From contig CM059431.1 of assembly GCA_030390025.1 (NCBI GenBank), positions 149,546,001-149,610,000 on the forward strand: 64,000 nucleotides of DNA, given 5' to 3'. Position numbers and translations under genes: made by a program. This document shows positions 8,101 through 64,000 of this stretch, in pieces. Numbering within the stretch: position 1 is the first letter of the stretch; each line of letters starts with the position of its first letter. Under the pieces are notes generated by a model, which worked only from the letters and a program-made list of their open reading frames with translations, ran no database searches and was not told where the DNA came from. This DNA is from Squalus acanthias (taxonomy: Eukaryota).

Positions 8101-8170
8101 TAGTTCGTGATTTCTTAATCACTATACGGTTACTGGGCCACTTTGCATCTGCTGTGTTGGTTGATTCTCA

Positions 8171-8765: not shown

Positions 8766-8794
8766 TCCCCGTTACCAGTCGTTCTTCCTATTTC

Positions 8795-9458: not shown

Positions 9459-9496
<38 letters not shown>

Positions 9497-12309: not shown

Positions 12310-12344
<35 letters not shown>

Positions 12345-12625
12345 ATCTCTCTCTCTCTGTCTCGCTCTATCGCTCTCTCACTGACTCCCGTCGTCTGTCT
12401 CTTAACCCCGTTTATCTCAATTCATATCTCTCGCACCCGGTCTGATGCTCTCCCTGTCTCCAAACATATTTCTCCCTCTACAGGTATGTCTCTCTTTCTC
12501 TGGCACCCCTGTTTCTCACTTTCTGTGTGCTCGTCTGTCTCACTAAAATAAACTGTCTGCCTCCCAACGTGTGTCTCCATTCGTCTCTCCACCCCTACTC
12601 CCACCCCCTGGTCTATCTCACACTC

Positions 12626-27918: not shown

Positions 27919-28289
27919 CGGGCGAGTTAAGAGTACATTGCTGATGGTGCAAGTGCAAGAAATGCACAGTGAAGGAAAGGATGGAAAATCCAGATGTTTC
28001 TACTGAGAGCTGCCAATGAGAAAACTGCTGCCCAGGGAGGAGACGCTTGGGCAAACCATGCTAGCAGTGAGTCTCAGGCTGTTCCTCCACCGCAAACCCA
28101 GCTCCCAATAGCGGATTTTATAAACTCCAACACATTTCGCCTGATTTGAACGGTGGAGGGTTTCAAGGGGATTCTGATTTTTGCAGTGAGGAGAGAGGAC
28201 TGTTTATAAAATGCCACATTCCCAAACAATGTTTAAATAAATAAATGCATGATTTTTTTAAACAGTCCGGCAGCGAGTTGTTGTTACGC

Positions 28290-28554
28290 TGAGTGAGACA
28301 CAGAGTGAGAGAGAACGGCAGAGAAAGAGAGACAGAGGAAGAAAAACAGAGTGAGAGATGGAGAGAAAGACGAGGAGAGAGAGAGCCAGAGAAAGTGAGA
28401 CAGATAGAGCTAGAGAGACAGAAGGTGGAAAGAGAGAAAGACCGAGAGAGCGAGAGAGAGAGAGAGAGACAGGAGAGAGTCTGAGATACAGACACAGAGA
28501 CTGAAAGAGTGACAGAGAGGGACGTGATAGAGGGATTCAGAGAGAGCGAGACAG

Positions 28555-28604
<50 letters not shown>

Positions 28605-28914
28605 AGACAGATAGATTTCAGAAGAGAGAGAGGGAGAGAATGAGAGAGAGGAGGAGATAGAGAGAGACAGAGAAGAGGCTGAGATTCAGAGGCAGAAAGA
28701 GAGACAGAGAGGGAGAGAGAGAGACCGGGATAGATTGATAGAGACAGAGGGAGGCAGAGACAGCGGGAAGCATAGAGACAGAGAGGGAAAGGTGGAGAGA
28801 CAGTGAGAGCGGAGAGAGAGAGACAGGCGAGAGTCTGAGATACAGACACAGAGACTGAAAGAGAGACAGAGAGGGCCGGTAGATAGATCCAGAGAGAGTG
28901 AGACAGGATATATG

Positions 28915-28946
<32 letters not shown>

Positions 28947-30005
28947 AAAAAGAGGAGACAGATAAACATAGGAAGAGAGAGAGGGAGAGAATGAGAGAGA
29001 AGAGGAGATAGAGAGAAGAGGAGAAAGAGAGAGACAGAGAAGAGGCTGAGATTCAGAGGCAGAAAGAGAGACCGGGATAGATTGGTAGAGGCAGAGGGAG
29101 GCAGAGACAGCGGGAAGCATAGAGACAGAGAGGGAAAGGGAAATGGGAGATCGGTAGAAACAGATCTGAGAGAGACAGAGGCAGTGAGAGAGAGAGAGAG
29201 AGCGAATGAGAAAAAGGGGGAGAGAGAGACAAACACACAGTGTGATCAAATGAAAGAGGGTGACTGAGATCCAGAGAGTGGGAGAGTGCTAGGGATACAC
29301 AGAGAGAGACGGGGAATGGCACAGAGAGAGCCAGAGAATGGGGAGAGAGACAGAGAGAAGGAGATACACCTACATTGAACGATAGAGAAGGAGACAGTGA
29401 GACAATGAGAGAAAGATAGAGAGCAACAAAGAGAGATAGGCAGGGACAGACAGAGTGACTGAGAGACATTCAGAGAGGGAGAGGCAGATAGAAAGAGGGA
29501 GACGGAGGGGGGGGGGTGAGAAAGAAGGACCTAGAGGGTGCGAGACAGAGAGAGGGGCAGAGAGAGAGAGAGAGAGAGATGCAGATAGATGGATGCGAGA
29601 CAGGAAGGTGCTGAGAGTGAGAGAGAGAGAGAGATGCAGATAGGGGGATGCAGGGACAGAGAGAGAGGGCAATAAAAAGACAAGGAGAAACAAAGAAAAA
29701 GAGAAAGAGACAGAGAGGGACAGAGAGAGTGTGGCAGAGTAAAAGCCAGACAGAGAGTGGGAACGGAGGTTAAAAGAGAGACAAGATGAAACCAACAGAG
29801 TGGGAGAGACAGAGGGGGATTCAGAGCGAGAGACAGGGACAGATACAAAGAGATGGACAGAGAGAGAGTGGAGAGGGCGAGAGACAGAGAGCGAGAAAGA
29901 AAGGGAGTGATAGACAGACAGAGCAAGAGAAGCAAATAGTGAGATAGACAGAGAGAGGGAGAGAGAAAAAGAGCGCGAGAAAATGGGAGATGGAGATGTA
30001 AACAG
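28290..30005. repeat. GA-rich low-complexity block with an internal ~360-bp direct duplication
   Basis: GAGAGTCTGAGATACAGACACAGAGACTGAAAGAG...(AT)n(AG)n...GAAGAGGCTGAGATTCAGAGGCAGAAAGAGAG occurs at ~28475-28700 and again at ~28829-29070. Confidence 0.9.
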
Positions 30006-37414: not shown

Positions 37415-37595
37415 ATGGATCAGAATATGAGAACAGGAGATTGGAATGTTACAACAATGGGCAGGAGTTTCTCCTCGGTTGTTGAATATTTTTCTGTACA
37501 TTATGATGAACTATCATTAGAACGACAGATCCAGCACGCACTTTTGATTATTCAATTCTTTTACTACCCCCTCCTTGCTGCTGTTGGCGTTCCTG
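37415..37595 (+). CDS. Exon 1 of an orphan class A GPCR (GPR139/GPR142-like): N-terminus and first half of TM1
   Basis: ACAATGG Kozak ATG at 37415 (alternative at 37457). Encodes MDQNMRTGDWNVTTMG...IQFFYYPLLAAVGVP and ends at the donor CCTG|GTAAGT in phase 1, compatible with exon 2. Confidence 0.8.
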
Positions 37596-37964
37596 GTAAG
37601 TTTCTGTATCCAGCTATTAATTCTATAAACTTTGTTTAACTGCATTACTGTTCTTGCCTTTTACTCTCCCCTCCTTGATGCGATTGCTGTTCCTGGTAAG
37701 TCTCTGTAACAACCTATTAACTGTGAAAAACTTTGCATGCTGTATTACTATTCCCGTAAGTTACGCTCTCATTTTTGCTGCTGTTGGTGTTACTTTTAAA
37801 TCTCTACATAAAGCAATTAGATCTGTAAAACCAGGTCTCACTGTATTACTGTGTTTATCATTTCAATCTTGGGAAGACCAAAGCCATTGTCTTCTGTCCT
37901 CGACAGAAAATCAATTTGTATGCAACATTTCAGTCTCCCTCCCTGGCCAATGTCTGCAGATGAA

Positions 37965-38350
37965 CCAGACTGTTCACAGCAACGGCATTTTCTTTGACCC
38001 TGAGCTGAGTTCCGAACTCATATCCTCTGATCCATCAGTCCAGCCTAATGGCACCTCCATAAAATCGATCGTCTCCACCCCGACTCAGCCCTTCCGCTGC
38101 ATAAACCCTCACCCGTGCCTTTGTTAAATCCTGACTCGATAACTACAATACTCTCCCGGCTGGCCACACATTTAAAAGCCTTCATAAACTAAAGGCACAT
38201 CCACAGCTCTGCTGCCCTTATCCTAACACGCATCATGTCCCGTTCACCCATCACCCTTTTGCTCGCTGAGAACCATTTGCTCCTGATCGGGAAATGCCTC
38301 GATCTGAATATTCTCATGCTTCAGATCAAATCCGACCATGGCCTCAGCAA
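37965..38350 (+). mobile_element. Old L2 LINE fragment
   Basis: AAACCCTCACCCGTGCCTTTGTTA...ACTCGATAACTACAATACTCTCCCGGCTGGCC resembles the decayed L2 motif LIHAFVTSRLDYSNALLAG. Confidence 0.6.
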
Positions 38351-38534
38351 TCCAATTAGTCCCATTCCCGATTCCTTTTTCCATAGCCCTGCAAATTGTT
38401 ACACTTCAAGTATTTATCCAATTCCCCTTTTAATTAAATTTCTTCCCTGCTGTACGTCTCCCAGGCTTTCTGTCTCTATTTTTATTTCTCTCTGTCTCTC
38501 TCTCTTCCTCTTCTCTCTCTCTGTTTCTTGCTCA

Positions 38535-39110
38535 GAGAATCATCGAATGGCACAGCACAGAAGGAGGATATTCGGCCGATCGTGTCCGTGCCATCTCTTT
38601 TAAAGAGCAGTATTATTAGTCCTACTCTTTAGCCAGAGCACTGTCAAAATTATCCCTTCAACTAATTATCGCATTCCCTTTCGAAAGTTACTATTGAATC
38701 TAGTTCCACCACGTTCTCAGACAGTGCATTCCAGATCACAGCAACTCACTGCATGAAGAAAATTCTCCTCATCTCTCCTCTGGTTCTTTTGCCTATTACC
38801 TTAAAACTGTGTCAGCTGGTTACCCAACATTCTGCCACTGGAAAATAATTCGTCTTATGCACCCTATCAAATCCCATGAAAATTTTGATCATCTATATTA
38901 AATCTCCCCTCATGAAAAAGGACAAAGTTAGATCAGGTGTAAAAGCTTTCAATTGGGGAAAGGCCAATTTTACTAAGCTGAGATTCGATTTAGCAAAAGT
39001 GAACTGGAAAAAGCTACTTGAATGTAAATCAGTGGCAGAGCAATGGGAGTTATTCAAGGAGAAGATAGTGAGGGTTCAGAGCAAATATGTTCCCACAAAG
39101 AAAAAAATAA
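38535..39110. mobile_element. CR1 fragments (3' end on - strand ~38535-38900; ORF2 piece on + strand ~38900-39110)
   Basis: Translation FNWGKANFTKLRFDLAKVNW...QWELFKEKIVRVQSKYVP, preceded by an antisense CR1 3' end. Confidence 0.8.
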
Positions 39111-39112
39111 AG

Positions 39113-39571
39113 GAAATACTTGCATTTGTATAGCGCCTTTCACAAACACCGGATGTCTCAAAACGCTCCACAGCCAATGAACTACTTTCGAACTGGAATC
39201 ACTGTTGTAATGTGGGAAACGCGGCAGCCAATTTGCGCACATCAAGGTCCCAAAAACAGCAATGTGATAATGATCAGATAATCTGTTTTGTTATGTTGAT
39301 TGAGGAGAAATATTGGCCAGGACACCGGTGACAATTCCCCAGCTCTTCTTCGAAATAGTGCCATGGGCATTTTTACGTCCACCTGAGAGAGCAGACAGGG
39401 CCTCAGTTTAACGTCTCATCCGAAAGACGGCGCCTCCGACAGTGCAGCACTCCCTCAGCACTGCACTGGAGTGTCATCCTCGATGTATGTGCTCAGGTCC
39501 CCGCAGTGCGACTTGCACCCAACATTTTCTGACTGAGAGGTGAGTGTGCTACGAATTGAGCCACAGCTGAC
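39113..39571 (-). mobile_element. DeuSINE-type tRNA SINE (SacSINE1-like)
   Basis: The minus strand has a tRNA-like head TGTCAGCTGTGGCTCAATTCG, a Deu-domain-like GCCGTCTTTCGGATGAGACGTTAAACTGAGG and an L2-type tail GAAAGGCGCTATACAAATGCAAG. Family name assigned from recall. Confidence 0.8.
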
Positions 39572-40120
39572 AAAAAAGATGGGTTCTCAAATGTAGAGCC
39601 CACTGGTAGTCAGGGAGCGTACAGTCCATTTGGCACAACCAGTCTCTGTCGCTGGTTATGCTCCACTCGAGCCTCCTCCCGTCTTTCCTCATCTAATTCT
39701 ATCAGCATAATCTTCTATTCCCTTCTCCCTCATATGCTTATCTAACCGCCCCTTAAATGCATCTACACAATTCGCTTCAACCACTCCCTATGGTAGCGAG
39801 TTCCACATTCTCACCACACTCTGGATGAAGTCGTTTATTCTTAATTCATTATTTGATTTCTTGGTGCCTATCTTATATTGATGTCCTCTACTTTTTCTCT
39901 TCCCCAGAAGTGGAAACACTTTCTCTGAATCTACTCTATCAAAACCTTTCATGATTTAAAGACCTCTATTAGGTCACACCTCAGCCTTCGCTTTCAAGAG
40001 AAAAGAGACCCAGCCTTTTCATCCTTTCCTGATAGGTGCACCCTCGCATTTGTGGTATCATCTTTGTAAATATTCTCTTCAACCTCTCCAGTGCCTCTAT
40101 ATCCGTTTTTTTTTTATAAT

Positions 40121-40853
40121 GGGCCGAAAATTGATCCCGGGACGCACTGCGTACTCTCGCGTATTCCCACTCCAATTGCCGGTTTTCTGCATGCCCTGCG
40201 CATGCGCTGAAAACCGGCAATTGCTCTTCTGAAAAGGGGGCGGGTCCTCGGTGCATCGCGTGCGCGCTACAGGCTGCGCGCACGCTGTGCACTTCATGCT
40301 TTGGACACGCAGGTAAGCACGGAAGATTTTGGAAATGTAAAAAGGAGGAGTAAGACCCACTTTTAAGAAGGTAAGTAGTGAATTAAGTATTTTTTTGAAT
40401 TTTTTTTAACAGGAATATCTTTTTTAGAGACTTTAAAGACAGGTAAGTTTATTTTTATAACTTTTTAAAAGATTTTAAACTTTTTCAAAAATTTAATTTT
40501 TTATTCAAAATGGTTAATTTAATTAACTATACTTATTTTATTAATGTGATGGTTTTTTTTTAAATTTAATTGAGGTTTAGCTGTTATTTTGGGGGGGTGT
40601 AAGATTCATAGATTTCAAAGCCGTGCTGTGAAACTTATGAATGGAAGATCGTGTGCTGCCATTGGCTCTAAATGAGTCACGTGATCCCACAACTCGCACG
40701 AATTCACTACGCCGCTGGGATACGCAAGCACTGCCCAGCTGATGTCTGGAACATCAAGTTCGTGCGAGCTGGATCTGAAAAAGCACAAGCGATGTGAGAG
40801 TACGCGGGGAAGCCTTACCCCCGCGGGAACAGAGCGAGATCAATTTCTGGGCC
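40121..40853. mobile_element. Non-autonomous Harbinger-type MITE, copy 1
   Basis: TIRs GGGCCGAAAATTGATC / GATCAATTTCTGGGCC (13/16 match) with a 3-bp AAT duplication on both sides. The CR1 sequence rejoins across the element. Confidence 0.85.
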
Positions 40854-41749
40854 AATATGACGATCAGAATTGCATAGAGTACTTCAAGTGTCGTCTAACC
40901 AAGTTCACACCAAGGTTCAATACAAGTTTAGCATAACTTCACTACTTTTCCATTCTATCCCTCTGGAAATAAACCCTTGTCCTTGGTTTGCGTTTTGTCT
41001 TGCCTTGTTAACGTGTGTCGATAATTGTCAGTGATTTGTGTATTTGTACTCCCAGATCTTTTTGCTCCTCTACCCCATTTTAGATTCTTATTTTCCAAGT
41101 AATATGTGACCTCCCTATTTGTCTTACCAAAAATGTAATACCTCACATTTATCTGTGTTGAATTTCATCTGCTAATTATATGCCCATTCTGCAAGTTTAC
41201 TAATGTCTCCTCGTAATTTGTTGCAGTCCTCCTCAGCATTAGCCATCCCTTCCAATTTGGTGTCGTCCACAAATTTAGAAATTGTGTTTTTAATTCCAAA
41301 GTCTAAATCGTTAATATCAATTGTGAACCACAGTGGTCCCAGCACTGATCATTGTAGAACACCACTACCCAACTTCTGCCACTCTGAATAGCTACCCTTT
41401 ATTCTACGCTCTGCTTTCTGTCTTGAAGCCAGCTAGCTATCCATTCTGCTACTTGTCCCCTGACTCCGCATTCCTTGACGTTATTTCTTAGTCTATCTCG
41501 TACCTTATCGAAGGCCTTTTGAAAATCTAGATAGATTACATCGAATGCATCAGCTTCGTCTACACTTACTGTTACGTCTTGATTCACTTAGGTTGGTCAG
41601 GCATGACTTTCCCTTTTGAAATCCATACCCTATTTGTCATTTCTAAATGTTCTTATATTTTCTCGATTATTTTTCTTACCACCGTTGTTAATCTGACAGG
41701 CCTATAGTTACCTGCACATGTTCTATCTCCCTTATTAGATATAGATATT

Positions 41750-42501
41750 GGCCCAGAAATTCGTCCGAATACGAGAGAGTACGCAATGTGTACTCACCCA
41801 TATTCAGTCCCGAAGTGCCGGTTTGCTGCATGCACTGCGCATGCGCGGGAAACCGGCACTTCCGATATTGCGAAGGCGGCGGTTCCTAAGTGAACCGCGT
41901 GTGCACTACAGGCTGTGCGCACGCAGCATGCTCAGTTTTTTTTTCAGGTTTGAACGCGAAGGTAAGTTTTGAAGATTTTACACATGAAAAAGACCCCCTT
42001 TTAACAAGCTAAGTAGTTAATTAAGTATTATTTTAATTTTTTTCAACAGGTTTATGTTTTTTAGAGACTGTAAAGAAAGGTAAGTTTATTTTTATAACTT
42101 TTAAAAAGAATTTAAATGTTTTCAAATATTTAAATTTTTGTTTAAAGTGGTTAATTTATTTAACTATAGTTATTTTATTAATGTGATGGTTTTTGAAAAA
42201 AAATAATTGAGGTTTAGCTGTTCTTTTGAGGGCAATTTGTATTCATAGCTTTGACAGCTCTTTCTGTCAAAACTATGAGTGAAAGATGGTGTGCTGCAAT
42301 TGGCTCTAACTGGCTCACGTGATCCAGAGGTCGCATCGAACTCACTGCGTCTCTGGGACACGCACACACTGCGCGCCGGCACCAGGGAGAGGCCCAGGAA
42401 CTGAAGTTCGTGTGGGCCAAAACCATAAAGGCAGGCGCGGAGTGTGATATCGCGGGGGATCCTTAACCCCGCGGCCACCATCGAAGTTTATTTTCTGGGC
42501 C
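41750..42501. mobile_element. Non-autonomous Harbinger-type MITE, copy 2
   Basis: TIRs GGCCCAGAAA / TTTCTGGGCC with a 3-bp ATT duplication. The internal sequence is colinear with copy 1. Confidence 0.87.
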
Positions 42502-43809
42502 ATTATGTTAGATATCCGCCCGACCTCTGGCACTACTCCTTTTACTATCGAATTATTAATTATGTTTAGTAATGCCTCTACTATCTCTTCCCTAGATTCT
42601 CTTAAAATGCGTGGATGTGATCCGTCCGCATCAGGGTTTTATCCTATTTCAGTTTGATTAATGTATTTAGTATATCTCTTCATTTTATTTTAAATGCAGT
42701 TAACTCATTACTAATCTCATCATCCGATGTCTTCTCCACCTCTTCTATCTCCCTGGTAAATACTGAAGCAAAGGAATTATTCAATATCTCTGCCAACTCT
42801 ATATTGCTGCCGGTGGTAGATTCCTCTCCATCTCTTAGTGGCACTATTCCCATTCTGAACTTCTTTTTTGTATTGATATGGCTGCAAAATATTTTAATAT
42901 TTTGTTTTATATTCCTTGATAATTTAATTTCATAGTTACTGTATGCCTTCCTAATTGTTTTTTTGACATCTCTTCATATCCCACAATATTCTCCCTTATC
43001 ATACTCTCCCCTGCTGTCCATGTAGTTAATATATGCCGATTTGCTTATGTTCAATTTCTCCCTTACGGCTTTATTCATCCACGGTGTCTCAATAGTGTTT
43101 TGCTTGCTCTTGTTTATCAACAGAATATATTTTCCTGGACTCTCTTGAACACTTGTAAATGTTTTCCATCGTTGTTCTACTTCATTATTTGCCAATGTTG
43201 TCCATTTTCTATCTCAGCCCCTCAGAATCAGCTGTTCTCCAATCTAATACCCTAGTCTTCATCATACCTATGTCAATCTCAATTATTATCTTCAAGTGTC
43301 TTTTATTATGGTCACTATTGCCGAGATGCTCCCTTACTTTTACTTGTATTATCTGATCTGGTTCATTCCCCCTTACTTGATCCAGTAGTGAATCCTCCCT
43401 TGTTGAGCATTTTACATATTGAGTTAGAAAGGAGTCTTGTACACATTGTCGGAACACTATTCTCTTATCCCCTTTACCTGCCTAATTTTTCCAATTATTA
43501 ACTGGGGATTTGAAATCCCCCATGATTATCATTCTAAGTGTCTTTTTTTCTGATTTCCCTAATTTGTCTGCATATTTCTTCCTCCATTTCTCTTCCACTA
43601 TTAGGTGGTCTGTTGACTAACCCTATTGGTGTGATTGATCCTTTATTATCATTCATTTCTATCCACATGAATTCTATTTCTGTCTTGCTGATACCTGCGT
43701 CACTTTTTTCTACTGCCATTATGTTACGCCTAATATGTACAGCTACTCCGCCTCTCCTTTTTGCCTCTGTCTATCTTTTCTAAATGTTTCATATCCTGCA
43801 ATGTTTAAT

Positions 43810-45472
43810 TAGGGCCAATTGGAGAGCAAAAGGTTAACCTGTGTGTGGAGGCGGAAGACATGGCTATGGTCTTATGAATACTTTGTGTCTGTCTTCACAG
43901 AAAAGAGGGTCAATGCTGACATTGTAGTTAAAGAGGAAGAATGTGAAATATTAGATATGATTAGCATAGAGACAGAGAATGTATTAAGAGGTCTTGCATC
44001 TTTGAATGTCGATAAATCGCCTGGCCCGGATGAAATGTATCCCAGGCTGTTAAGAGAAGCAAGAGAAGGTTGTGTCTGAGTAATTTGATTGAATTTTATG
44101 ATGAGGTAACCAGGAGGGTCGATGAGGTTAGTGCATTTGATGTAGTCCACATAGATATCAGCAAGACCTTTGACAAGGTCACACATGACAGTTTGGTCAA
44201 AACAGTAAAAGTGCATGGGATCCAAGGAAAGTGGTAAGTTGGATTCAAAATTGGCTCAGTGTCAGAAAGCAAAGGATTATGGTCGACGGGTGTTTTTGTG
44301 ACTGGAAGACTGTTTCCAGCTGGGTTCTGCAGCGCTCAGTACCAGGTCCCTTGCTTTTTGTTGTATACATCAATGATTTAGACCGCAATTTTGAGGGCAT
44401 GATTAAAATGTTTGCAGACGATACAAAAATTGGCTGTGTGATTGATAGTGAGGAAGAAAGCTGTAAACTGCAGGAATATATCAATTGACTGGTCAGGAGG
44501 GCAGAAAAGGGGCAGATGGAATTCAATCTGGAGAAGTGCGGAAGGCTAACAAGGCAAGCGAATACACAATAAATGGTAGGATACTGAGAAATGTAGAGGA
44601 ACAGAGGGACCTTGAAGTGCATGTCCATGGATCCCAGAGGATAGCAATACAGGTAGTTAAAGTGGGTAAGAAGGTATACAGGATACTCTCCTTTATTAGT
44701 CGAGGCATAGAATATAACAAAAGAGAGGAGATGCTAGAACTGTATAAAACACTAGTTAGGCCACAGCTAGAATACTGCGTACAGTTCTGGTTACATTACA
44801 GGAAGATATATTTCTTAAATCTAAAGGGATCAAGGTCTATGGGAAGAAGGCAGGGACAGGGTACTGAACTTGGATGTACAGCCATGATCTCATTGAATGG
44901 CGGAGCAGGCTCGTGGGGCTGAATGGCCTGGTCCTGCTCCTATCTTCTATGTTTCTATGTAAGATGTGATTGCACTAGAGAGGAAACAGAGAAGATTTAC
45001 TAGGAGGTTGCCAGGACTGGACAATTTTAGATCTGAGGATAGATTGGACAGGCTGGGATTGCTTTCTTTGGAACAGATGATGCTGAAGGAAGATTTAATT
45101 GAGGTGCTTAAAATTATGAGCGGCCTAGACAGTTTGGATAGGAAGCAGCTATTTCCCTCTGCAGAGTGGTCAATAACCAGCGGGCATAGATTTAACCTAA
45201 TTGGTAAAAGGATTCGAGGAGAGTTGAGAATTCGTTTTACCCTGTGGGTGATGGGAGTCTGGAACTCACTGCCCCAAAAGGGTGGTAGAGGCAGAGAACC
45301 TCACCACATTAAAAAGTACTTGGATGTGCACCTGAAGTTGCACAACTTGTAAGGTTACGGACCAAGAGCTGGAAAGTGGATTTAGGCTGGATAGCCCTTT
45401 TGCGACCGGGACAGGCACGATGGGCGGAATTGCCTCCTTCTGTGCCATACAGTTTTATGATTCTATAATTCT
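43810..45472 (+). mobile_element. CR1 LINE fragment, decayed, with a small nested CR1 3' end (~44805-44962)
   Basis: KSPGPDEMYPRLLRE, KMFADDTKIG and LVRPQLEYCVQFW motifs. Confidence 0.9.
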
Positions 45473-45717
45473 ATGTTTCTGAACCTGCTCAGCTCTAAAA
45501 AGAACTCTGCATGCTTGATGTGCATCTGTCGCAACTTGTCCAGCACCTTCCAAAAATTGCATAAGTACACTCCAGGTCTGTCTGTTCGTGCACCCACTTT
45601 AGTTTATAATGCCACTTCTCGTGCTTCCTACCAAAATATATCACTTCACACTTCTCTGTGTTCAATTGTTTCTGCCATGTAACTGCCCATTTCACCATGG
45701 ACCATGGACAAAGGCCG

Positions 45718-46682
45718 GTACAGTGTAATCTTGGCTGCCCTGGGAATGAAAGTCCTGGACTTAGGTGGGAGCAGTATTATCTAGGCGGCCCTGGGAATGA
45801 AATTCCTCGACTGAGGCGGGAGCATTCTCATCTAGATGTTAACTTATGAAGAAAGGTTGAACAGGTTGGGCCTATACCCATAGTAGTTTAGAAGAATGAG
45901 AGGGGATCTTATTGAAACATCTAAGATTCTGAGGGGGCTTGACAGGGTAGATGCAGAGAGGATTTTTCCCCTCGTGGTAGAATCTAGAACTAGGGGGCAT
46001 AATGTCAGTATAAGGGGGCACCATTTTAAATCGGAAATGAGGAGGAATTTCTTCTCTCAGAGGTTCGTGAATCTTTTGAATTCTCTTCACCAGAGAGCCG
46101 TGGAGGCTGGGTTATTGAATATATTTAAGGTGGAAATATACAGAATTTTGAGCGATAAGGGAGTCAACAGTTATGGGGAGCGGACAGGGAAGTGGATTTG
46201 AGGCCAAGATCAGATCAGCCATGATCATAGTTAATGGCGGAGCAGGCTCGAGGGGACAAATGACCTATGCCTGCTCCGATGTCTCATGATCTTATGTTCG
46301 AAACAGTGTAATGTAGGCGCCCTGAGAGTGAAATTCCTGGTCTGAGGCGGGAGCATTCTCATCTAGGCGGCCCAGGGGATTGATTTCCCAGACTGAGGCA
46401 GGAGCAGTTTAATCTAGGCCGCCCTGGGAATTAAGTTCCCGGACTGAGGCAGGAACAGTGTAATCTTGGCCGGCCTGGGAATTAAATTCCTAGACTGCGT
46501 CGCCAGCAGTGAAATCTAGGCGTCCCTCGGAATCAAATTCGAGGACTGAGTCAGCAGCAGTGTAATCTATGCAGCCCTGGGAATAAAATTCCTGGTATAA
46601 TACGGGAGCAGTGTAATCTTGCTGGCCCAGGAAATTAAATTATTGGACTGAGGCGGGCGCAGGTTAATCTTGGCGCCCCTTG
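45718..46682. repeat. 51-bp minisatellite split by a CR1 3' fragment (~45835-46300, + strand)
   Basis: Approximate unit CAGTGTAATCTAGGCGGCCCTGGGAATGAAATTCCTGGACTGAGGCGGGAG at 45721 and 45772, resuming at ~46303. ORF 45896-46201 is CR1. Confidence 0.88.
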
Positions 46683-46859
46683 GAAAAGCCCTCCTCTGCT
46701 CTAAGTAAGGAGCTCCTTCACTGTGTGACCTCACACAATCAGCGCGATGCCTCCAGCACAAAGACCACCAGCCTCTCACAGAAGGGATGTCGTGGGTTCG
46801 AGGATCTCGATGGAAAGTATTCTTGAACAGTGACAGTTAAAAATAATACTTTGGAATAA

Positions 46860-49800
46860 CAACATAAAATGTTGAAAACAATCAGCAGATTCGGCAGCAT
46901 TGTGGCGATAGGAAGAGAGTTACCGTTTGAGGTCTGTGACCCTTCCTCAGAACTGGAAAAAGCTTGATATGTAAAAGATTTTAAGCAAGTGCAGGATCAG
47001 GGAAAGGTGGTGAGGGAAAGAAAGAACAAAAGTGATGGTCTGTGATAATGTGGAAAGGAAGAGTGGTTAGATGTTGCAAATGGGGATGGTAGAAACATCA
47101 ACAGCTGCCGCCTGAAAAAAACAGCGGCCAGATTATGGTCTGAAATTGCGGAACGAAATGTTTAGTCCAGAGGCTGTAAAGTGCCCAATCGATAGATGAG
47201 GTGCTGTTGCTCGAGCTTAAATTGATCTTCATTGGAACACTGTATGAAGCCGAGGACAGAGAGGTCAGAGTGGGAGGGGGAGCAGAGAATTAAAGTGACA
47301 GGAGACCGGAAGCTCGAAGTCACGCGTACCAACTGAACGGCAGTGTTCAGCAACCGATCACCCAATCTGCATTTGTTTTCCCCAGTTTAGACTAAACAGC
47401 AACGTGACAGCGAATACTGTATACTGAATTGCAAGAAGTACAAGTAAATCGCTGTTTGGACTGGAGGTAGATAAACAATGGCAAGCATTTAAAGATAGAA
47501 TGACAAAATTGCAAAAATTGTTTATACCAATCTGGCATAAAAGGAAATCTAAAAAGGTGACTCAACCGTGGATAACAGGGGAAATTAGAGACAGCATAAA
47601 ATCCAAAGATAGGGCGTATAAAATAGCCAAAAAAAGCGCCAGAGCGGAAGATTGGGAACAGTTTAAGATAGAGCAAAGGAGGACAAAGGGCTTAATCAAG
47701 AGGGGCAAAATAGCTTACGAAAGCAAGCTGGCGGAAAATATAAAAACTAACTCCAAAAGCTTTTATAAGTATATCAAGAGGAAAAGACTGGTGAAAACCA
47801 AAGTTGGCCCATTGCAGTCAGATACGGGGGAATATATAACGGGAAATAAGGAAATGGCAGACCAACTAAATGCATACTTTGGGTCAGTCTTTACGAAGGA
47901 AGACACAAAAAACCTCCCTGGGATATCAGGAAAAATAGGGACATTTGCAAAGGAGGAACTGACGCAAGTCAATATCTCTAAGGATATGGTGTTAAGGAAG
48001 CTAAAGGGATTGAAGGCGGACAAATCCCCAGGGCCTGATAACATGCATCCTAGGGTGCTGAAGGAGGTGGCCCTAGAGATAGCGGATGCACTAAGTATGA
48101 TTTTTCAGAATTCATTAGACTCGGGAACAGTGCCCATGGATTGGAGGGTAGCTAACGTTACCCCACTATTCAAAAAGGGGGGTAGGGAAAAAGCAGGTAA
48201 TTACAGACCTGTAAGCCTTACATCAGTTGTGGGCAAAATGCTGGAGTCCATCATTAAGGATGAAATAGCGGAGCACTTAGCAAATGGGGACAGGATAGGA
48301 CAGAGTCAACATGGATTTACAAAGGGTAAATCGTGCTTGACTAATCTATTGGAATTTTTTGAGGGAGTAACTGGTAAAATAGATGGGGGAGAGCCAGTAG
48401 ATGTGGTGTACCTGGACTTCCAAAAGGCCTTCGACAGGGTCCCATTTAAAAGATTAGCATGGAAAATTGAAGCTCATGGGATAAAGGGGAAAGTATTGAC
48501 GTGGATAGAGAACTGGCTGTCAGATAGAAAACAGAGAGTTGGAATAAACGGCTCATTTTCTGAATGGCAGGCAGTAACAAGTGGGGTACCACAGGGATCT
48601 GTCCTGGGTCCCCAGCTGTTCACAATTTACATTAATGACCTGGATCAGGGAGTCGGATGCAGCATTTCCAAATTTGCAGACGACACTAAACTAGGAGGGG
48701 GGGTGGGCTCAGAGGAGGAGACCAGGAAGCTCCAGAGCGATTTGGACAGACTGGGTGATTGGGCGGATAAATGGCAGATGCACTATAATGTGGACAAGTG
48801 CGAAGTTATCCACCTTGGGTGCAGGAACGGGAGGGCAAATTATTATTTAAATGGCAATAAATTGGGAGAGGGGGAAGTACAGAGAGACCTGGGTGTTCTT
48901 GTACACCAGTCACTGAAGGCGAGCATGCAGGTGCAACAGGCGATCAAGAAGGCAAACGGTATGCTGGCCTTCATAGCAAAAGGGTTGGAATACAGGAACA
49001 GGGATACCTTGCTGCAGCTGTACAGGGCACTGGTGAGACCACACCTCGAGTACTGTGTACAGTTTTGGTCGCCTCATCTGAGGAAAGATGTTCTTGCCAT
49101 GGAGGGGGTGCAGCGGCGATTCACCAGGCTGATACCAGGAATGGCGGGATTGACCTATGAGGAGAGACTATATAGTTTAGGGATGTACACACTGGAGTTT
49201 AGAAGATTGAGAGGGGACCTCATAGAAGTGTATAAAATTCTGACAGGTCTAGACAGACTAGATGCAGAAGGAATGTTTCCCTTGGCGGGTGAGAACAGAA
49301 CTAGAGGACATAATTTAAGGATAAGGGCTAAACCATTTAGGACAGAAATGAGGGGGAATTTCTTCACTCAGAGGGTGGTGAACCTGTGGAACTCATTGCC
49401 ACAGAGGGCAGTGTACGCCAGCTCATTAAATATATTTAAGAGGGAATTAGATATATTTCTACAGGCAAAAGGGGTTAAGGGTTACGGAGAGAAGGCGGGG
49501 ACGGGATACTGAATTGGAGGATCAGCCATGATCTCATTAAATGGCGGAGCAGGCTCGAAGGGCCGGATGGCCTACTCCTGCTCCTATCTTCTATGTATCT
49601 ATGTATCTATGTATCTGGGAGGAGTACTTGTGGCTCTGGACAGTGGGAAGGGAGGAGGTAAAAGGGCAGGCGTCGCATCCTCTGCGCTTGCACGGGAAGG
49701 TGCCAAGGGGAGGGGAGAGTCTGTTGGGGGTGATTGAGGAGTAGACTAGGGTGATGTGGAGGGTTCGGTTCCTTCGGAATGCTGAAAGGAGAGGGGAGGA
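46860..49800 (-). mobile_element. Penelope-like element 3' part (GIY-YIG and terminal repeat), split by the young CR1
   Basis: Translation GTFPCKRRGCDACPFTSSLPTVQ (49620-49715), then KQRFTCTSCNSVYSIRC and SDLSVLGFIQCSNEDQFKLEQQHLIYRLGTLQP. A degenerate hammerhead motif lies at ~46915-46955. Confidence 0.85.
47460..49615 (+). mobile_element. Young 5'-truncated CR1 with an uninterrupted 670-aa ORF2 (RT, 47500-49512)
   Basis: All RT motifs are intact (KSPGPD, NYRPVSLTS, QHGF, LDFQKAFD, GVPQGSVLGP, FADD), followed by a 3' UTR and a (CTATGTAT)3 tail. No endonuclease domain. Confidence 0.97.
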
Positions 49801-50060
49801 TATACAAAACATTTTCTATCCCCTTCTCGCTGCTGTTAGTGTTCCTATTAAGCAATATGTCCAGTTATTAATTCTGCAATATTATTCTTCCTATTTACCG
49901 TGGCATACTCAGTTATTAATGGTATTATGAGTTTCAAGTAGTTGCATCTTTGTTAATGCAAGAGTTCTTGTTTAAAATGTCTGGCACATCCTCGCTGCTG
50001 CTGGTGTTCCTGGTAAGTCTCTGTATCCAGCTATTAATTCTATAAATCATGTTTTACTGT
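49800..50060 (+). pseudogene. Two degenerate copies of the GPCR exon-1 3' end
   Basis: IQNIFYPLLAAVSVP has a dead donor (CCT ATTAAG). HILAAAGVP is followed by G|GTAAGTCTCTGTATCCAGCTATTAATTCTATAAA, almost identical to 37595-37629, but has an in-frame TAA at 49973. Confidence 0.75.
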
Positions 50061-50175
50061 ATTTCTCTCCTTTTCATTCCCCATCCCATCTGGACTGCTG
50101 CCGGCTGTTGATTATAAATGACAAATGCGAGAAGTCGCACAAAACCAGGTGATAGTCCAACAGTTTTATTTGAAA

Positions 50176-50212
50176 TCACAAGCTTTCGGAGCGCTGCTCC
50201 TTCGTCAGGTGA
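50176..50212 (-). ncRNA. Minimal type I hammerhead ribozyme motif
   Basis: Minus strand reads UCAC-CUGACGA-A-GGAGC-AGC-GCUCC-GAAA-GCUU-GUGA. Confidence 0.8.
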
Positions 50213-50566
50213 AGTGAAGGGATGTATATAGGCGCAGCATATATAGTCAGAGAACACTGCCAGGTGATTACAGTTAATCTTTCTAACTCACCTTTATCAC
50301 ACCTCGGCAGAGAGATAATCACGGCAAAAGTTTTTTGTTTTCCATACAGACAACAGCATCTGCCACATTTGACCCCTTGTGACCCCCACCTCATTGTCTT
50401 TGATGCAATGTTTTCCTGACTCACCTGCTTGGACACCATCCATTCCTTTGATTGCCGTGATTATCTCTCTGCCGAGGTGTGATAAAGGGCAGTGAGAAAG
50501 ATGAACTGTAATCATCTGGCTGTGTTCTCTGACTATACATGTTGTGCCTATATAGATCTCTTCACT

Positions 50567-50603
50567 TCACCTGACGAAGGAGCAGCACTCCGAAAGCTTG
50601 TGA
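50567..50603 (+). ncRNA. Minimal type I hammerhead ribozyme motif
   Basis: Plus strand reads UCAC-CUGACGA-A-GGAG-CAGCA-CUCC-GAAA-GCUU-GUGA. Confidence 0.8.
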
Positions 50604-50859
50604 TTTCAAATAAATCTGTTGGACTATAACCTGGTGTTGTGCGACTTCTCGCATTTGTCCACCCCAGTCCAACACCGGCATCTCCACATCATGGATTCTA
50701 AAGGAGTTACATTTTTCTCAAGCTTCATTTTTTCTATATTTATCTCAAGAAAATATATTGTACGACACTCTTTGCTTAAAGAATTCCGTTCTGCTATCTA
50801 CACTGAACATTTGTAACAGATCAGAAGAATGTTGTCTTGGTTGAGGAGAATTTTCACCT

Positions 50860-50992
50860 AATGGCGAAAGATCATCGACCTGAAACGTTAACTCTGTTTC
50901 TTTCTCCACAGATGCTGCCTGACCTGCTGAGTATTGAAAACATTTTAAGTTCTCATTTCAGATTTCCAGCATCCGCAGTAATTTGTTTTTGT
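50860..50992 (+). mobile_element. Short Penelope terminal-repeat fragment with a degenerate hammerhead motif
   Basis: Reads ATGGCGAAAGATCATCGACCTGAAACGTTAACTCTGTTTC...CACAGATGCTGCCTGACCTGCTGAG and is homologous to the reverse complement of 46860-46955. Confidence 0.65.
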
Positions 50993-52307
50993 TTAAACCG
51001 AATGGTCGGTATGGTTACTGACACAGAGTCACAGGAACAAACCCTGGCAGATCAGAAACTGATCTTTAAATGTCTGAAATATCCGCTAATCATTCAGTTC
51101 CACTCAGTGTCTTCTTTCCCACCATCTCCAGCTCCGCATCAGTGGCTCTGCTTCTGATGGTTAGAAAAGGATTACTAGGATAACTGTCATTCTCAGAAAA
51201 CGTTCAGTCAGCCATATTTCAATGCGTTTATTTCCAATCTTTGTTTTCAATTTACAATTGGATCCCATGCCAGTCTGTCACAGTTCAGTGGATCTCTCAG
51301 TGAGACCCAGAGTGATTCTCTATTGCCTCCTACTGTACTGCAAGATAAACAATCCCAGCTGTTTGTAACTGAAGTACTGAGTATAGAAAATCCTTTCATA
51401 TCTTCTCGACTAATATTCTCTGCACAAGTTGCAAACCAACAGGTGAAAAAGTACAAGGATAAATCTATTCCATTTGTGTTCAGATACTTTACGCATGCCT
51501 TCGACGGCTCGTTGCCTGTGGGATGATTCGCCTGATTATGATGTAAATAAATACATTTAGTGGGCTATTACCTGCTCAATGATAACTATTTATTTTATTT
51601 CAGAATCCAGTCTTTGCAATGTTACTTGCAAAATCTTCCTTTCAATGAGCCACAATTTGAGTAATTCAACAAAACTGCAGAAAACTCAATCTTCAAATCA
51701 ATTCTTACAGCCCAGTTATCTTTATAACTGCAGTGCACTTGTATTTATTATCTTACACTTGCATATTACAACCGTACATTTTAAATACAGTTGCCAGTAT
51801 TTATTGCACGCCAAGGTTGCAGTTTCTGTATTTTGCTGTTGCATTCATTTTAAGTTCTAAATATAATGGATATTGTAACCAGGAGCAGGAATCTAAGCGG
51901 GATTTCCCCCCTCACTAACACAGGGGCACTAAGCGAATTGCACCGCTCCAAATGCTGACTCATCCCGGGACACGAAGGCTTCCTGAGAGGTTTTGGTCAT
52001 TTGTGTGCCTGGTACCTCGGGTGGTGCTTTTGTCTGCAGGGCTAAAGGTAGATTTACCATTTAATCTCTCATTGATCAAACATCTGTTACTTTCATGTGT
52101 ATTTATCCCCGTTTCATTTCTTAATTCCACAATATATTTCCGATTATTCTTACAATAAACATTGTATTCAGCTTCACGGGTAATAGAATTAGATTATATC
52201 ATTGAATGTCACTAATGATTTGCTGATTTCTCCCCGAATTCCTTCAATCTGCTGCTCTTGATCCCAGCCTGATGTATAATTTCCCTGTTTATTTCCCTTG
52301 CTCACAG

Positions 52308-53209
52308 TGAATTTAGTGACGATTGTGATCCTGTCTCGTGGAAAGTGCGGTCTCTCCAAATGTGTCACTCGCTACCTGGTGGCCATGGCAGCGGCGGATC
52401 TACTGGTCGTTATCCTCGACCTGATATTGAGGCACATTCCGATTGTTTATAAGGAACAGTTTCTTTTCTTGTGGTCCATCCGCGTGTGTAATATCCACGC
52501 CGTCCTTCTTTATGCAGCCACAGACTGTTCTGTCTGGTTCACCGTCACTTTCACATTTGATCGATTTGTGGCCATTTGTCACCAGAAGCTGAAAACTAAA
52601 TATTGCACCGTGAACTCGGCGGCTGTGGTTCTGGGAACAGTGACTGTGCTGAGCGGTTTAAAGAACATCTTCTGGTATTTTCTGTTGACAGATTTGTATT
52701 CGCTTTGGAACATACCCTGGTTTTGTGAGATAACAATGGATGTAGTGTATTCACCGGTCTGGGGAATAATCGAGCTCCTTCATTATTGTCTCACCCCCGG
52801 GGTCCCATTTGTTTTGATTCTGCTGCTCAATGCTGTCACCGTCAGACACATTTTAGTGGCCAGCAGAGCCCGCAGGAGACTCCGGGGTCCTAGCAGTGGG
52901 GAGAGTCCCAGAGACCCAGAGATGGAGAGCCGCAGGAAATCCATAATTTTACTGCTTGTTATCTCCGGCAATTTCATCCTGTTATGGGCAGTGTTTATGT
53001 TGTTTTATATATGGACCCAGATATGGTCTTTTGGCTATGATTCTGTAGCTCCACCTCTTTATCTCATGGAATTGGGATTGATGCTGCAGATGCTGAGTTG
53101 CTGCACAAACACTGGGATTTATGCCATGACCCAGACTAAGTTCAGAGAGCAGTTGAAGAATGTGTTGAAATATCACTTCACTCTTATTGTAAAATTCATT
53201 AAAGGATGA
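52308..53209 (+). CDS. Exon 2 of the orphan class A GPCR (GPR139/GPR142-like), TM1 second half to stop
   Basis: Polypyrimidine tract and CTCACAG| acceptor; the spliced G+TG gives Val. Motifs: NLVTIVIL, LVAMAAADL, TM3 Cys, FTFDRFVAICH, PWFC, ISGNFILLW, SCCTNTGIY, KFREQL. The frame is open to TGA at 53209. Confidence 0.93.
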
Positions 53210-59879: not shown

Positions 59880-60478
59880 AAGACATAAGACATAACACGT
59901 AGGACAAGGAGTAGGTCATTTGGCCCCTCGTGCCTGCTCCGCCTTTCAATAAGATCATGGCTGATCTGATCTATGCCTCAACACCACATCTCTGCCCGCT
60001 CCCCATAACCCATGACTCCCTTATCTTTCAAAAATCTGTCTAAATCCACCTTAAGTATATCCATTGACCCAGCCTCCACAGCTCTCTGGGGAAGAGAATT
60101 CCAAATATTCACGAGCCTCTGAGAGAAGAAATTGCCCCTCATTTCCGATTTAAAAGGGTACCCCCTTATTCTGAATCTATGCCCCTAGTTCTGGATTCCC
60201 TGCCGAGGGGAAACATCATCTCTGCATCTACCTTGTCAAGCCACTTCAGAATCTTACAAGTTTCAATAATATCCTCTTTTATTCTTCTTAATGCCAATGA
60301 GAATAGGCAAAATCTGCTCAAACTTTCTTCATAAGATAATCCCTTCATCTCCAGATTAATCCTCATGAACCTTCTCTGAACTGTCTCCAATGGAAGTATT
60401 TCCAAACTTAAATAGGGAGACCAAAACTGTACGCAGTACACCAGATGTGGTCTCACCAACGGCCTGTACAGTTGTAAG
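59880..60478 (-). mobile_element. CR1 3' fragment inserted in the 32-bp satellite
   Basis: ORF 60166-60459 reads VRPHLVYCVQFWSPYL; the antisense tail is (AAGACAT)n. Confidence 0.92.
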
Positions 60479-63400
60479 AGTGCTTCGGGGTTGCGGTGTA
60501 TATCAATGTGAAAAGTGAGTTGCGCAGTCTATATAAGAGTGTTACAGTGAGTGGTGTGTGGTATATCAGAGTGTTACAGTGAGGGATGTGGGGATTATCA
60601 GCGTGTTACAGTGAGGGTGTGGGGTATAGCTGAATGTCACAGTGAGTGGTGTGGGGCATATCATAGTTTTACAGTGAGGGTTGGGGGTTATATAATAGTG
60701 TTACAGTGAGGGGTGTGGGGTATTTCAGAGTATTATAGTGAGCGGTGTGGGCTATATCATAGTGCTACAGTGAGGGGTGGGGTTATATAATAGTGTTACA
60801 GTGAGGGGTGTGGCATATATCAGACTGTTAAAACGAGGGTTGTGGTCTACAACAGAGATTCATGGAGATGTGGCGTACATCAGGGCGTTGCACTGAGAGT
60901 TTTGGTTTATATCCGAATGTTACATTTAGTGACAGTGTCGGGTATATCAGTGTGTTATTGTGAAGAGTGTGTGGAATAGTAGTGTGTTACTCTGAGGTTT
61001 GTGGGGTATATCAGTGTGTTATTAAGAAGAGTGTATGGAATAGCAGTGTGTTACTCTGAGGGTTGTGTTGTATATCAGTGTTTTACAGTGAAGATTGTGT
61101 GGAATAGCAGTGTGTTACTCTGAGGGTTGTGGTGTATATCAGTGTGCTACTGTGAAGAGTTTGTGGAATAGCACTCTGTTAGTCTGAGGGTTGTAGGGTA
61201 TATCAGTGTGTTGCAGTGAGTGGTGCGGCGTAAATCAGAGTGATACAGTGAGGGTAGTGGGGGAAATCAGATTGTAACAGTGTTGGGTGTGTACTGTATC
61301 AGAGTGTAGCAGCGAGGGGTGTGGAATACATAATAGTGCTTTCGGTGTGGCTTGTATCAGAGTGTTACAGTGAGGGTGTGGGATATATCAGAGTGTTACA
61401 GTGAGGGTGTGAGGTAAAGCAGAGTGATACGTGAGGGGTGTGTGGTATATCAGAGTGTTACATTGAGGGGTGTGGGGTAAAGCAGAGTGTTACAGTGAGG
61501 GGTGTGGACTATATCATCGTGTTACAGTGAGGGCTGGGAGATATATAATAGTTTTACATTGAGGAGTGTGGTGCATATCAGAGTGTTACAGTGAGGGGTG
61601 AGGGCCATATCATAGTGTGACAATGAGGGGTGGGGGGTATATTAAACTTTTACAGTGAGAGGTGTGGGTTATAACAGAGTACTACAGTGAGGGGTGTGAG
61701 GTATCTCAGAGTGTGTTACAGTGAGTTGTGCGAGGTATATCAGTATTACAGTGAGTGATGTCGGAAGTAACAGCCCAGAGTGTGACATAAAACAAATTGT
61801 TACATTGAGTGGTGTGGTGTATAACGGAGTAATACATTGACTGGTGTAGGGTATATCAGAGTGTTACAGTGAGGGGTGTGGGGTATTTCAGAGTGTTACA
61901 TTGAGTGGTGTGGTGTCTAACGGAGTATAACAGTGAGGGTTGTGGGGTATATCTGATTGTTAATGTGAGGGCTGTGGGTTATATCAGAGAGTGTTACAGT
62001 GAGGGGTGTATGGTATATCAGAGTGTTACAGTGAGTGGTGTCGGGTATATAAGAGTGTTACATTGAGGGGTGTGGTGAATATCAGAGTGTTAGAGTGAAG
62101 GGTGTGGGGTATATCAGAGTGTTACAGTGAGGGGTGTGGGGTATATTAGAGTGTTATAGTGAGGGGTGTGGGATATATCAGTGTGTTACAGTGAGTGGTG
62201 TGTTCTATATCAGAGTGTTACAGTGAGTTTTGTGGTCTTTATCAGAGTGTAACAGTGAGTTGAGCGGTCTATATCAGAGTGTTACAGTGACGGGTGTGGA
62301 GCAAATCAGAGAATGTTACAGTGAGTGGTGTGGGGTATATCAGTGTTACAGTGAGTGGTGTGGTGTATATCAGCGTGTTACAGGGAGTGGTGAGGTGTAT
62401 ATCAGCGTGTTACAGTGAGGGGTGTGGTGCATATCAGAATGTTACTGTGAGTGGTTGGGGTATATCAGAATGTTACAGTGAGGGGTGTGGGGTATATCAG
62501 AGTGTTAGAGTGAGGGGGTGTGTTCTATATCAGAGTGTTGCAGTGAGTGGCGTGGTGTATATCAGAGTGTTACAGTGAGTGGTGTGGTGTATATCAGAGT
62601 GTTACAGTTAGTGTTGTGGTGTATATCAGAGTGTTGCAGTGAGGGGTGTAGGCTATATCATAGGGTTACATTGAGTGTTGGGGTATATATAAGTGTTACA
62701 GTGAGGGTGTGGTGTATATCAGTGTGTTACAGTGAGTGATGTTGGGTATATTAGTGTGATAAAGTGAGGGGTGTGGGGTCTATCATTATGTAACAGTGAG
62801 GGGTGTGCGGTATAAGAGATTGTTACAGTGAGGGGTGTGAGTATATCAGAGTGTTATAATTAGCGGTGTGGGGGATATCAAACTGTTACCATGAGGAGTA
62901 AGTGGTACATCAGAGAGTGTTCCTGTGAGAGGAGTGGGATATATCAGAGTGCTGCTGGGATGTGGGGTATATCAGTGTGTTACAGTGAGGGCTGTGGTGT
63001 CTATCAGAGGTTGTTACAGTGAGCGGTGCGAGGTATATCAGTATTACAGTGAGTGGTGAGGGGAGTAACAGCCCAGAGTGTGGCATATATCAGAGTTTTA
63101 CTGTGAGTGGTGTGGGGTATATCAGTGTGTCACAGTTAGGGTTCAGGATATGTCAGAGTGATTTAGTAAGTGTTGTGTGGTATATCAGTTATAACAGTTG
63201 GGGTGTGGGGTATATCAGAGTGTTAAATTGAGGGGTGTAGGGTATATCAGACTGTTACAGCGTGTGATGAGGTCTATATAAGAGTTTTACGGGGTGTGGG
63301 ATTAATCAGGGGATTGCACTGAAAGGTTTGGTGCATATCAAAGTGTTACATTTAGCGGTGTGTGGTACATCAGCGTTTTATAGTGAAGAGTGTGTGGAAT

Positions 63401-64000
63401 AGCAGTGTGTTATAGTGAGAGGTGCGGGGTATATCAGAGTGTAACAGTGAGGGGAGTGGGGTAAATCAGAGTATTACATTGAGGTGTGTGGGGTAAATCA
63501 GAATGTTACTAGTGAGGTGTGTGGGAAATATCAGTGTTTTACAATGAGTGGTGTGCGGTATATCACTGTGTTATAGTGAGGGTTCTGCGGGACATCAGAG
63601 TGTTACAGTATTGGGTGAGTCGTGTATCAGAGTGTTGCTGTGAGAGGTGTGGGATATGTAAGAGTGCTTCGGGAGTGTGGTGTATATCACAGTGTTACAG
63701 TTATGGATGTGTGGCATATCAGATTGTTACAGTGAGAGGTGTAGCGTATATCAGTGTGTTACAGTGAGGTGTGTGGTTTATATCAGCGTCTGACATTGTG
63801 GAGTATTTCATAGTGTTACAGTGAGCGGTGTGGGGGATATCAGAGTGTTACCATGAGGGGTGTTGGGTATATCAGAGAGCGTTACATTGAGTGGTGTGGG
63901 ATATATCAGACGGTTACTGGGTTGTGGGGTACATCAGATTGTTACAGTGAGCGGTGTGGTGTATATCAGAGTGTTACAGTGAAGACTGTGGGGAATAGCA

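Follow-up and report, generated by a model that had tools for sequence, protein, structure and literature searches.

The 64-kb stretch of Squalus acanthias DNA analyzed here (hereinafter the window; all positions are counted from its first nucleotide) contains, within an intron, a palindrome both strands of which bear a hammerhead ribozyme motif. This arrangement raises the question whether the structure belongs to a mobile family of its own, serves the gene in which it resides, or is the product of one retrotransposition event. The evidence points to the last of these: the palindrome is very probably one dead-end insertion of an abundant Penelope-like retrotransposon (PLE), in which two 5'-truncated 3' ends lie head to head and which has undergone neutral decay since.

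The two inverted arms (50120-50327 and 50452-50659) are 208 nt long each and 93% complementary, with 15 mismatches and no gaps (BLAST E-value 8e-86), and enclose a spacer of 124 nt (50328-50451, + strand), in agreement with the arms of about 208 bp and the spacer of about 124 bp reported in the initial annotation of this locus. The extent given there, 50120-50692, captures a real palindrome but has to be amended: the last base of the element, which is 574 bp long, is 50693, and the flanking target-site duplication (TSD) was overlooked. This TSD is 9 bp long and AT-rich; its left copy (50110-50118, + strand, GATTATAAA) is followed by an extra T at 50119 that precedes the arm, and its right copy (50694-50702, + strand, GATTCTAAA) matches the left one at 8 of the 9 positions, a match equaled over the same offsets by 128 of 20,000 random right flanks (a chance probability of about 0.6%). 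The left arm is an inverted (- strand), 5'-truncated pLTR copy without a tail; the right arm is a sense (+ strand) pLTR copy that continues into a tail of 34 nt (50660-50693, + strand), present at this end of the element only. The spacer consists of further 5' family sequence that is found in the longer (right) copy only. With both 3' ends facing outward, the palindrome shows a head-to-head arrangement of inverted, 5'-truncated pLTRs. Because one TSD brackets the whole unit, the two arms, the spacer and the tail were most likely inserted as a single event. The window contains no other copies of the arm, spacer or tail, and the inner junction of the palindrome shows no clear microhomology. In a search for an empty-site paralogue at 37500-39500, homology of the left flank extends to 50109 and the right flank has no partner.

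That the palindrome is an artefact of assembly or of library fold-back is extremely unlikely. No contig across the inner junction is listed in the four sequencing runs described below and no piece spans the stretch, but the 15 differences between the arms are unlike a fold-back chimera, the TSD is found on both sides, and the right junction between element and TSD is crossed by a 112-nt contig of run X2 with one difference.

Several features of the arms are in keeping with a PLE terminal repeat. A TATA-like motif (TATACAT in the right arm and TATATAT in the left arm) located 21 nt ahead of an initiator-like TCACT (50534-50566, + strand) is likely the pLTR promoter, and an AATAAA hexamer (50609-50614, + strand) lies directly 3' of the ribozyme motif in both arms. 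A stem-loop closed by the tail is predicted at 50617-50674 (+ strand; -22.3 kcal/mol for 50604-50693) and is a weak candidate for the counterpart of the stem-loop at which reverse transcription is initiated in the PAc element discussed below; the fold of 50560-50700 has a z-score of -1.57, with 15 of 200 shuffles equally stable. The ATG that closes the tail may mark the point at which the missing ORF began. Six-frame translation of the spacer yielded no coding frame, its one long frame being without a Pfam match. At the start of the spacer, a splice-acceptor-like pyrimidine tract ending in CAG (50332-50349, + strand) runs in the sense of the host gene; it could be the end of the element's own intron or a cryptic acceptor.

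To place the locus within its repeat family, contigs from 4 (X1, X2, X7 and X12) of 24 listed runs, which cover 9 organism codes and 9 studies, were aligned at 85% likeness to 50328-50800, a reference that holds the right arm only; three of these runs are of organism A (two from different studies and one, X12, guessed to be RNA) and one is of organism C. Between 2356 and 15,900 contigs were aligned per run. The median summed depth over the spacer, which, the runs consisting of contigs, is not equivalent to copy number, was 2.6-2.9e5 in X1, X2 and X7 and 3.3e3 in X12, compared to 0-364 beyond the element from 50712. In all four runs, the border between spacer and arm is bridged by contigs that bear family variants. 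Thus, the spacer is part of the repeat rather than captured or unique DNA. Family depth is, overall, greatest close to the 3' end and drops abruptly after 50695, where loose ends accumulate behind 50692, 50693 and 50694 (63, 69 and 41 contigs in X1; 59, 67 and 52 in X2; 13, 11 and 9 in X12; 48 at 50692 in X7). A further set of loose ends lies behind 50650 (71 contigs in X1 and 83 in X2), with no such end among the rows listed for X7 and X12. The flanks beyond the loose ends are AT-rich and mutually unrelated (agreement of 0.37-0.47), and the letters after the ends at 50650 agree at just 0.41-0.42, for which reason a single LINE family inserting into the tail was discarded as the source of these ends. 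The true second 3' end of the family is probably located a few bases past 50650, near 50659, because the alignments stop just before 50651, a position at which the locus differs from nearly all copies; the outer end of the left arm corresponds to 50659. The two family 3' ends, at 50692-50694 and near 50650-50659, together with 5'-truncation, fit the 'tail' signature of Penelope-like elements. Among the loose ends, those before 50588 (X1, X2 and X12) mark a sister family that shares the 3' part and has a different 5' half of the hammerhead; the substitutions in that half seem to preserve both stems, I and II, via G-U pairs, with a consensus agreement of only 0.58-0.65.

The initial annotation interpreted the locus as an ORF-less Penelope derivative mobilised in trans. 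The Penelope component of this proposal, a Penelope-type minimal hammerhead within a terminal repeat, stands; a distinct arm-spacer-arm family is unsupported because the spacer is continuous with the arm in the family, and the depth and the two 3' ends fit truncated PLEs. We therefore regard it as quite improbable that arm, spacer, arm and tail make up a non-autonomous palindromic family of fixed structure, copied as a unit in trans by a Penelope protein. Such a family would account for the single TSD around the whole unit, and precedents for its components exist: PLE proteins are able to mobilise pLTR-flanked DNA in trans (accessible text of PMC3846280), and non-autonomous PLE derivatives have been described (PMC8557442; bioRxiv 10.64898/2026.07.22.740005, each as far as its available text goes). 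The depth steps up 1.6- to 5.6-fold across the border between spacer and arm, as would also be produced by a fixed palindrome, but the arm itself shows dips of similar size, and the rise does not discriminate; local divergence dominates the depth profile. A joint between 50328 and 50452 is absent from the 6 + 10 joints listed for the four runs, whereas joints at single-locus depth (10-135) elsewhere in the aligned stretch are listed, including two strand switches. A junction present in many copies ought to show up more readily than these, but the test is weak, since the one at this locus went undetected as well. Furthermore, the RNA of such a unit is predicted to form a hairpin of -390 kcal/mol that would hide the 3' stem-loop. 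Finally, the non-LTR retrozymes, in the available text of the bioRxiv report (10.64898/2026.07.22.740005), resemble our element in being ORF-less and derived from PLE pLTRs with a type I hammerhead, and are present in the one chondrichthyan sampled there, but are head-to-tail tandems with two same-strand hammerheads, whereas the arrangement here is inverted, with one hammerhead per strand. The element does not have the head-to-tail units with same-strand hammerheads that define a non-LTR retrozyme.

An attached RT/GIY-YIG ORF was not found near the element among the 64 of 154 window frames scanned against Pfam, a selection that left aside low-complexity frames and obvious LINE fragments; the only families found were 7tm_1 and RVT_1. 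The assignment to Penelope-like elements is probable and is based on the other features listed here. Pattern scans for copies gave 0 and 0 matches in viral contigs and 0 and 0 in metagenome contigs. The same scans of prokaryote genomes gave 1 and 0 matches, and the single match, located on a Leucobacter chromosome, was attributed to chance.

The differences between the arms carry information on their common origin. At 8 of the 15 differing positions, the letter that prevails in the family is found in the left arm; the remaining 7 variants are absent from the family variant rows listed and are apparently private to the left arm. This distribution, 8 changes against 7, suggests symmetric decay of the two arms (Jukes-Cantor distance of 0.076). 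Both arms have G at 50651, where A accounts for 98.5-99.9% of family depth, and A at 50554, where G accounts for 69-99.7%. Because letters that are rare in the family are common to both arms, the arms are likely to stem from one source element. It is, then, very improbable that two separate insertions, or a later local inversion-duplication, set an inverted copy beside an older one. The 7% difference between the arms would be in keeping with such a history, but a single TSD brackets the pair, with no TSD visible in between, the family-rare G50651 is common to both arms, and the changes are evenly spread.

In the right arm, the hammerhead motif occupies 50567-50603 (+ strand) and is of the minimal type I, with the core CUGACGA at 50571-50577 and U17 predicted at 50599; in the left arm, it occupies 50176-50212 (- strand) and is likewise of the minimal type I, with the core starting at 50208 and a predicted cut after U 50180, both cut positions being taken from hammerhead numbering. 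The core, CUGACGA...GAAAGCUU, thus begins at 50571 on the + strand and at 50208 on the - strand, the two starts being separated by 363 bp. In each arm, the motifs follow in the order UCAC-CUGACGA-A-GGAG-loop-CUCC-GAAA-GCU-U-GUGA, and both stem I (UCAC/GUGA) and stem II (GGAG/CUCC) are present in the MFE fold of each isolated 61-mer, so that the claim of a complete minimal core with stems I and II in each arm holds on both strands. The folds of the 61-mers are no more stable than those of shuffled sequences (z-scores of 0.02 and -1.16). A relaxed core pattern has two matches in the 64 kb, both in the arms, compared to 0.05 expected, and two matches were reached in none of 100 shuffles; these two matches represent one duplicated motif rather than independent occurrences. 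An extra A (50578) sits between A9 and G10.1, and the G10.1-C11.1 pair, the palindromic 15.2-16.2 and the core elements CUGANGA, GAAA and NUH are all present in the arm motifs. Comparison with hammerhead models, proposed along with the initial annotation, gave no match: Rfam 15 yielded none at the gathering level in the whole window and none at E<=10 in 50050-50760, though its models may be unsuited to forms that lack helix III. The hammerhead call is based on the motif, the fold and the published features of minimal hammerheads, not on a curated covariance model. The view that AAGCUU replaces stem III is correct in part, as only AGCU can pair, the first A being core A14 and the last U being nucleotide 17; between monomers, the duplex of the AAGCUU palindrome is predicted at -6.5 kcal/mol in a 6-bp register. 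Position 17 is a U, the slowest-cleaving of the H17 nucleotides, and the cut triplet is CUU. By the NUH rule as given in the accessible text of PMC3884650, this triplet is permitted.

Whether these ribozymes are expected to act depends on the transcript in which they are embedded. The MFE of the full element is predicted at -393 kcal/mol (z-score of -29), and that of the opposite strand at -390 kcal/mol. In the model of the full element, the pairing probability of hammerhead stems I and II is 0.00, compared to 0.8-0.95 for the motif alone, and forcing these stems is estimated to cost 65 kcal/mol; the earlier suggestion that the ribozyme is sequestered in a long hairpin is, accordingly, what the folding predicts. 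It is formally true that transcription from either direction yields one ribozyme, but the antisense arm is transcribed ahead of the ribozyme in both read-through directions. Under the model, only a transcript from the internal TATA/Inr (50534-50566) would free the ribozyme, as a monomer. According to the accessible text of PMC4209133, single minimal hammerheads show no cleavage and dimers show low cleavage; cleavage by the PAc hammerhead required the PAc protein (PMC11167929, available text). Given the predicted masking by the hairpin and the inactivity of minimal hammerheads as monomers or their dependence on protein, cleavage of the receptor pre-mRNA appears unlikely. By analogy, editing of the intronic hairpin is plausible. 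The contigs of run X12, guessed to be RNA, show 4 A>G places, the same number as the three other runs, and are uninformative on this point. A more elaborate scheme is decidedly improbable: that arm, spacer, arm and tail form a non-autonomous Penelope derivative that masks itself and is copied whole, that its intronic copies provide shark genes with long double-stranded hairpins, and that the hammerhead is freed only once ADAR editing or the internal pLTR promoter takes away the antisense arm, to act as a ribozyme switch on the receptor gene.

The intronic position in a GPCR gene that had been proposed is borne out by a two-exon model. Exon 1 (coding part, 37415-37595, + strand), identified by its frame, and exon 2 (52308-53209, + strand), identified by its frame and by Pfam, join at GT/AG into an open frame of 360 aa, the product of which matches Pfam 7tm_1 (rhodopsin-family receptor) with an E-value of 4e-20 and has GPR139 as its best relative among solved structures (E-value 2e-9). 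The element lies inside the single 14.7-kb intron (37596-52307) of this + strand, GPR139-like receptor gene. Four stretches of the window (49802-49852, 49988-50012, 37659-37720 and 37777-37862) are copies of the end of exon 1, either left over from a tandem duplication, perhaps, or serving as alternative first exons; the copy that ends at 50012 has a GTAAGT donor in phase and an upstream frame with stops. The same intron also contains an open frame of 694 aa (47428-49512, + strand) with a match to RVT_1 (E-value 2e-30), which we take to be a young 5'-truncated CR1-type LINE. A second repeat is present in two copies, 50858-50960 (+ strand) and 46852-46960 (- strand), which are 76% alike over 95 nt and contain a hammerhead-like motif that is broken, with a pyrimidine tract after it and, in the copy at 50858-50960, CAG-ATG; this is likely the terminal repeat of another Penelope-like family. 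Long, strongly strand-skewed low-complexity tracts, with GC skew up to about 0.6, are found at 8000-12500, 18000-21000, 28000-30000 and 60000-64000.

Location within an intact gene, about 100 bp past a spare exon-1-like donor, invites the view that selection has maintained the insertion as a regulatory hairpin or a masked ribozyme of the GPR139-like gene, and this view could draw on the fact that none of the 31 core and stem positions differs between the arms. This conservation, however, is not significant. The claim that the arms differ at scattered sites with both cores intact is accurate, the 15 differences including none in the 13 core nucleotides, but this count (0 of 15) is not significant (P of 0.37), and neither is that for the 37-nt motif (1 of 15; P of 0.21) or that for the 31 core and stem nucleotides (0 of 15; P of 0.08, a slight lean toward constraint). 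One of the refuting conditions named in the initial annotation, cores no better conserved than flanks, thus applies at this locus, where substitutions have not avoided the ribozymes to a significant degree. In the family, the core G12 (50592) is altered in 0.3-8% of the depth, which copies in decay would be expected to show. Divergence of the two arms has not been accompanied by compensating changes, and the cut triplet, allowed as it is, is of the slowest kind. In the whale shark genome, about 30% of PLEs are intronic (available text of 10.1101/443036), so that an intronic location is unremarkable. Taken together, selection for a function in the receptor gene is highly unlikely; under the truncated PLE insertion as the best explanation, the ribozymes in the intron are passengers.

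The form of the palindrome is not new: the head-to-head pLTR with a tail and TSD was described in 2013, and paired opposite-strand minimal hammerheads in 2014. For the PLEs of Adineta vaga, an inverted 5' pLTR, a 31-nt tail and a TSD of 8-10 bp are described in the accessible text of PMC3846280. Like Pen2a_Av from that study, the locus combines an inverted 5'-truncated pLTR with a sense pLTR and has a tail at one end (34 nt here and 31 nt in Pen2a_Av); the 9-bp TSD compares with the 8-10 bp of the EN+ PLE head-to-head units, and a TATA motif lies about 20 nt ahead of the Inr-like TCACT as it does in A. vaga pLTRs. Unlike the Pen2a_Av-type units as far as they are described there, the palindrome here is without any ORF, has only one sense pLTR, and holds 124 nt of unpaired element sequence between the arms, with no clear palindrome at the inner junction. 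More generally, an inverted truncated copy with a 30-40-bp tail is given as the typical PLE insertion in the available part of PMC8557442.

The hammerheads themselves have close counterparts in Schistosoma mansoni, where, in the accessible text of PMC4209133, paired minimal hammerheads on opposite strands, 100-700 bp apart, are attributed to truncated PLEs, a range that includes the 363 bp found here. The shared features are the intact core, the extra nucleotide between 9 and 10.1, G10.1-C11.1, the short helix I, the palindromic 15.2-16.2 and the lack of a helix III in the monomer. Helix II is 4-5 bp here compared to 7-8 bp in the S. mansoni families, and U17 is a further difference. Similarity extends to PAc, the Poseidon-type element of Anolis carolinensis (Frangieh et al. 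2024; PMC11167929, in its available text), with its hammerhead in the pLTR, two 3' ends that bracket the tail, an AT-rich target and a 3'-end stem-loop, the latter being only predicted here. The PAc ORF starts in hammerhead stem II; here, in contrast, the matching codon is ACG, the frame stops after 9 codons, and an ATG is found at the end of the tail. Among the main texts covered by our literature search, which included few subscription papers, we found no paper on shark PLE ribozymes or on a shark family of this repeat, and none on a palindromic non-autonomous PLE or on a link to ADAR; this repeat family may figure among the alignments that supplement PMC4209133 or in the species table of bioRxiv 10.64898/2026.07.22.740005.

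These comparisons suggest how the truncated head-to-head insertion could have arisen. According to the available text of PMC11167929, the PAc protein cleaves AT-rich DNA on both strands and extends each of them, reverse transcription starts at two sites that bracket the tail, the tail being the interval between them, and the hammerhead is assisted by the protein. By extension from this biochemistry, the protein of an autonomous copy would have cut both strands of the AT-rich site with a 9-nt stagger, and reverse transcription would have begun at the two 3' start points of the family, 34 nt apart, which would leave one end of the element with a tail and the other without it. Synthesis presumably broke off early in each case, leaving copies of 366 and 208 nt; it is this inequality that leaves the 124-nt spacer. 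In keeping with the letters shared by the arms, both copies would have been made from one source element. For the origin of the two strands, we give a little better than an even chance to two primed cDNAs, one per cut strand, and a little less than an even chance to fold-back self-priming of a single cDNA, as proposed in the accessible text of PMC3846280; fold-back fits the shared rare letters equally well.

Read in this manner, the palindrome is a further example of a very abundant retroelement inserted in truncated, inverted form, and its significance is small. It is, nevertheless, a clean specimen, with a TSD, both 3' termini and shared rare letters, of how PLEs make head-to-head copies, and thousands of such loci could separate synthesis from two primers from fold-back synthesis. 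Furthermore, should hairpins of this kind prove frequent in the introns of sharks, they might be a source of long dsRNA, by analogy with inverted Alus.
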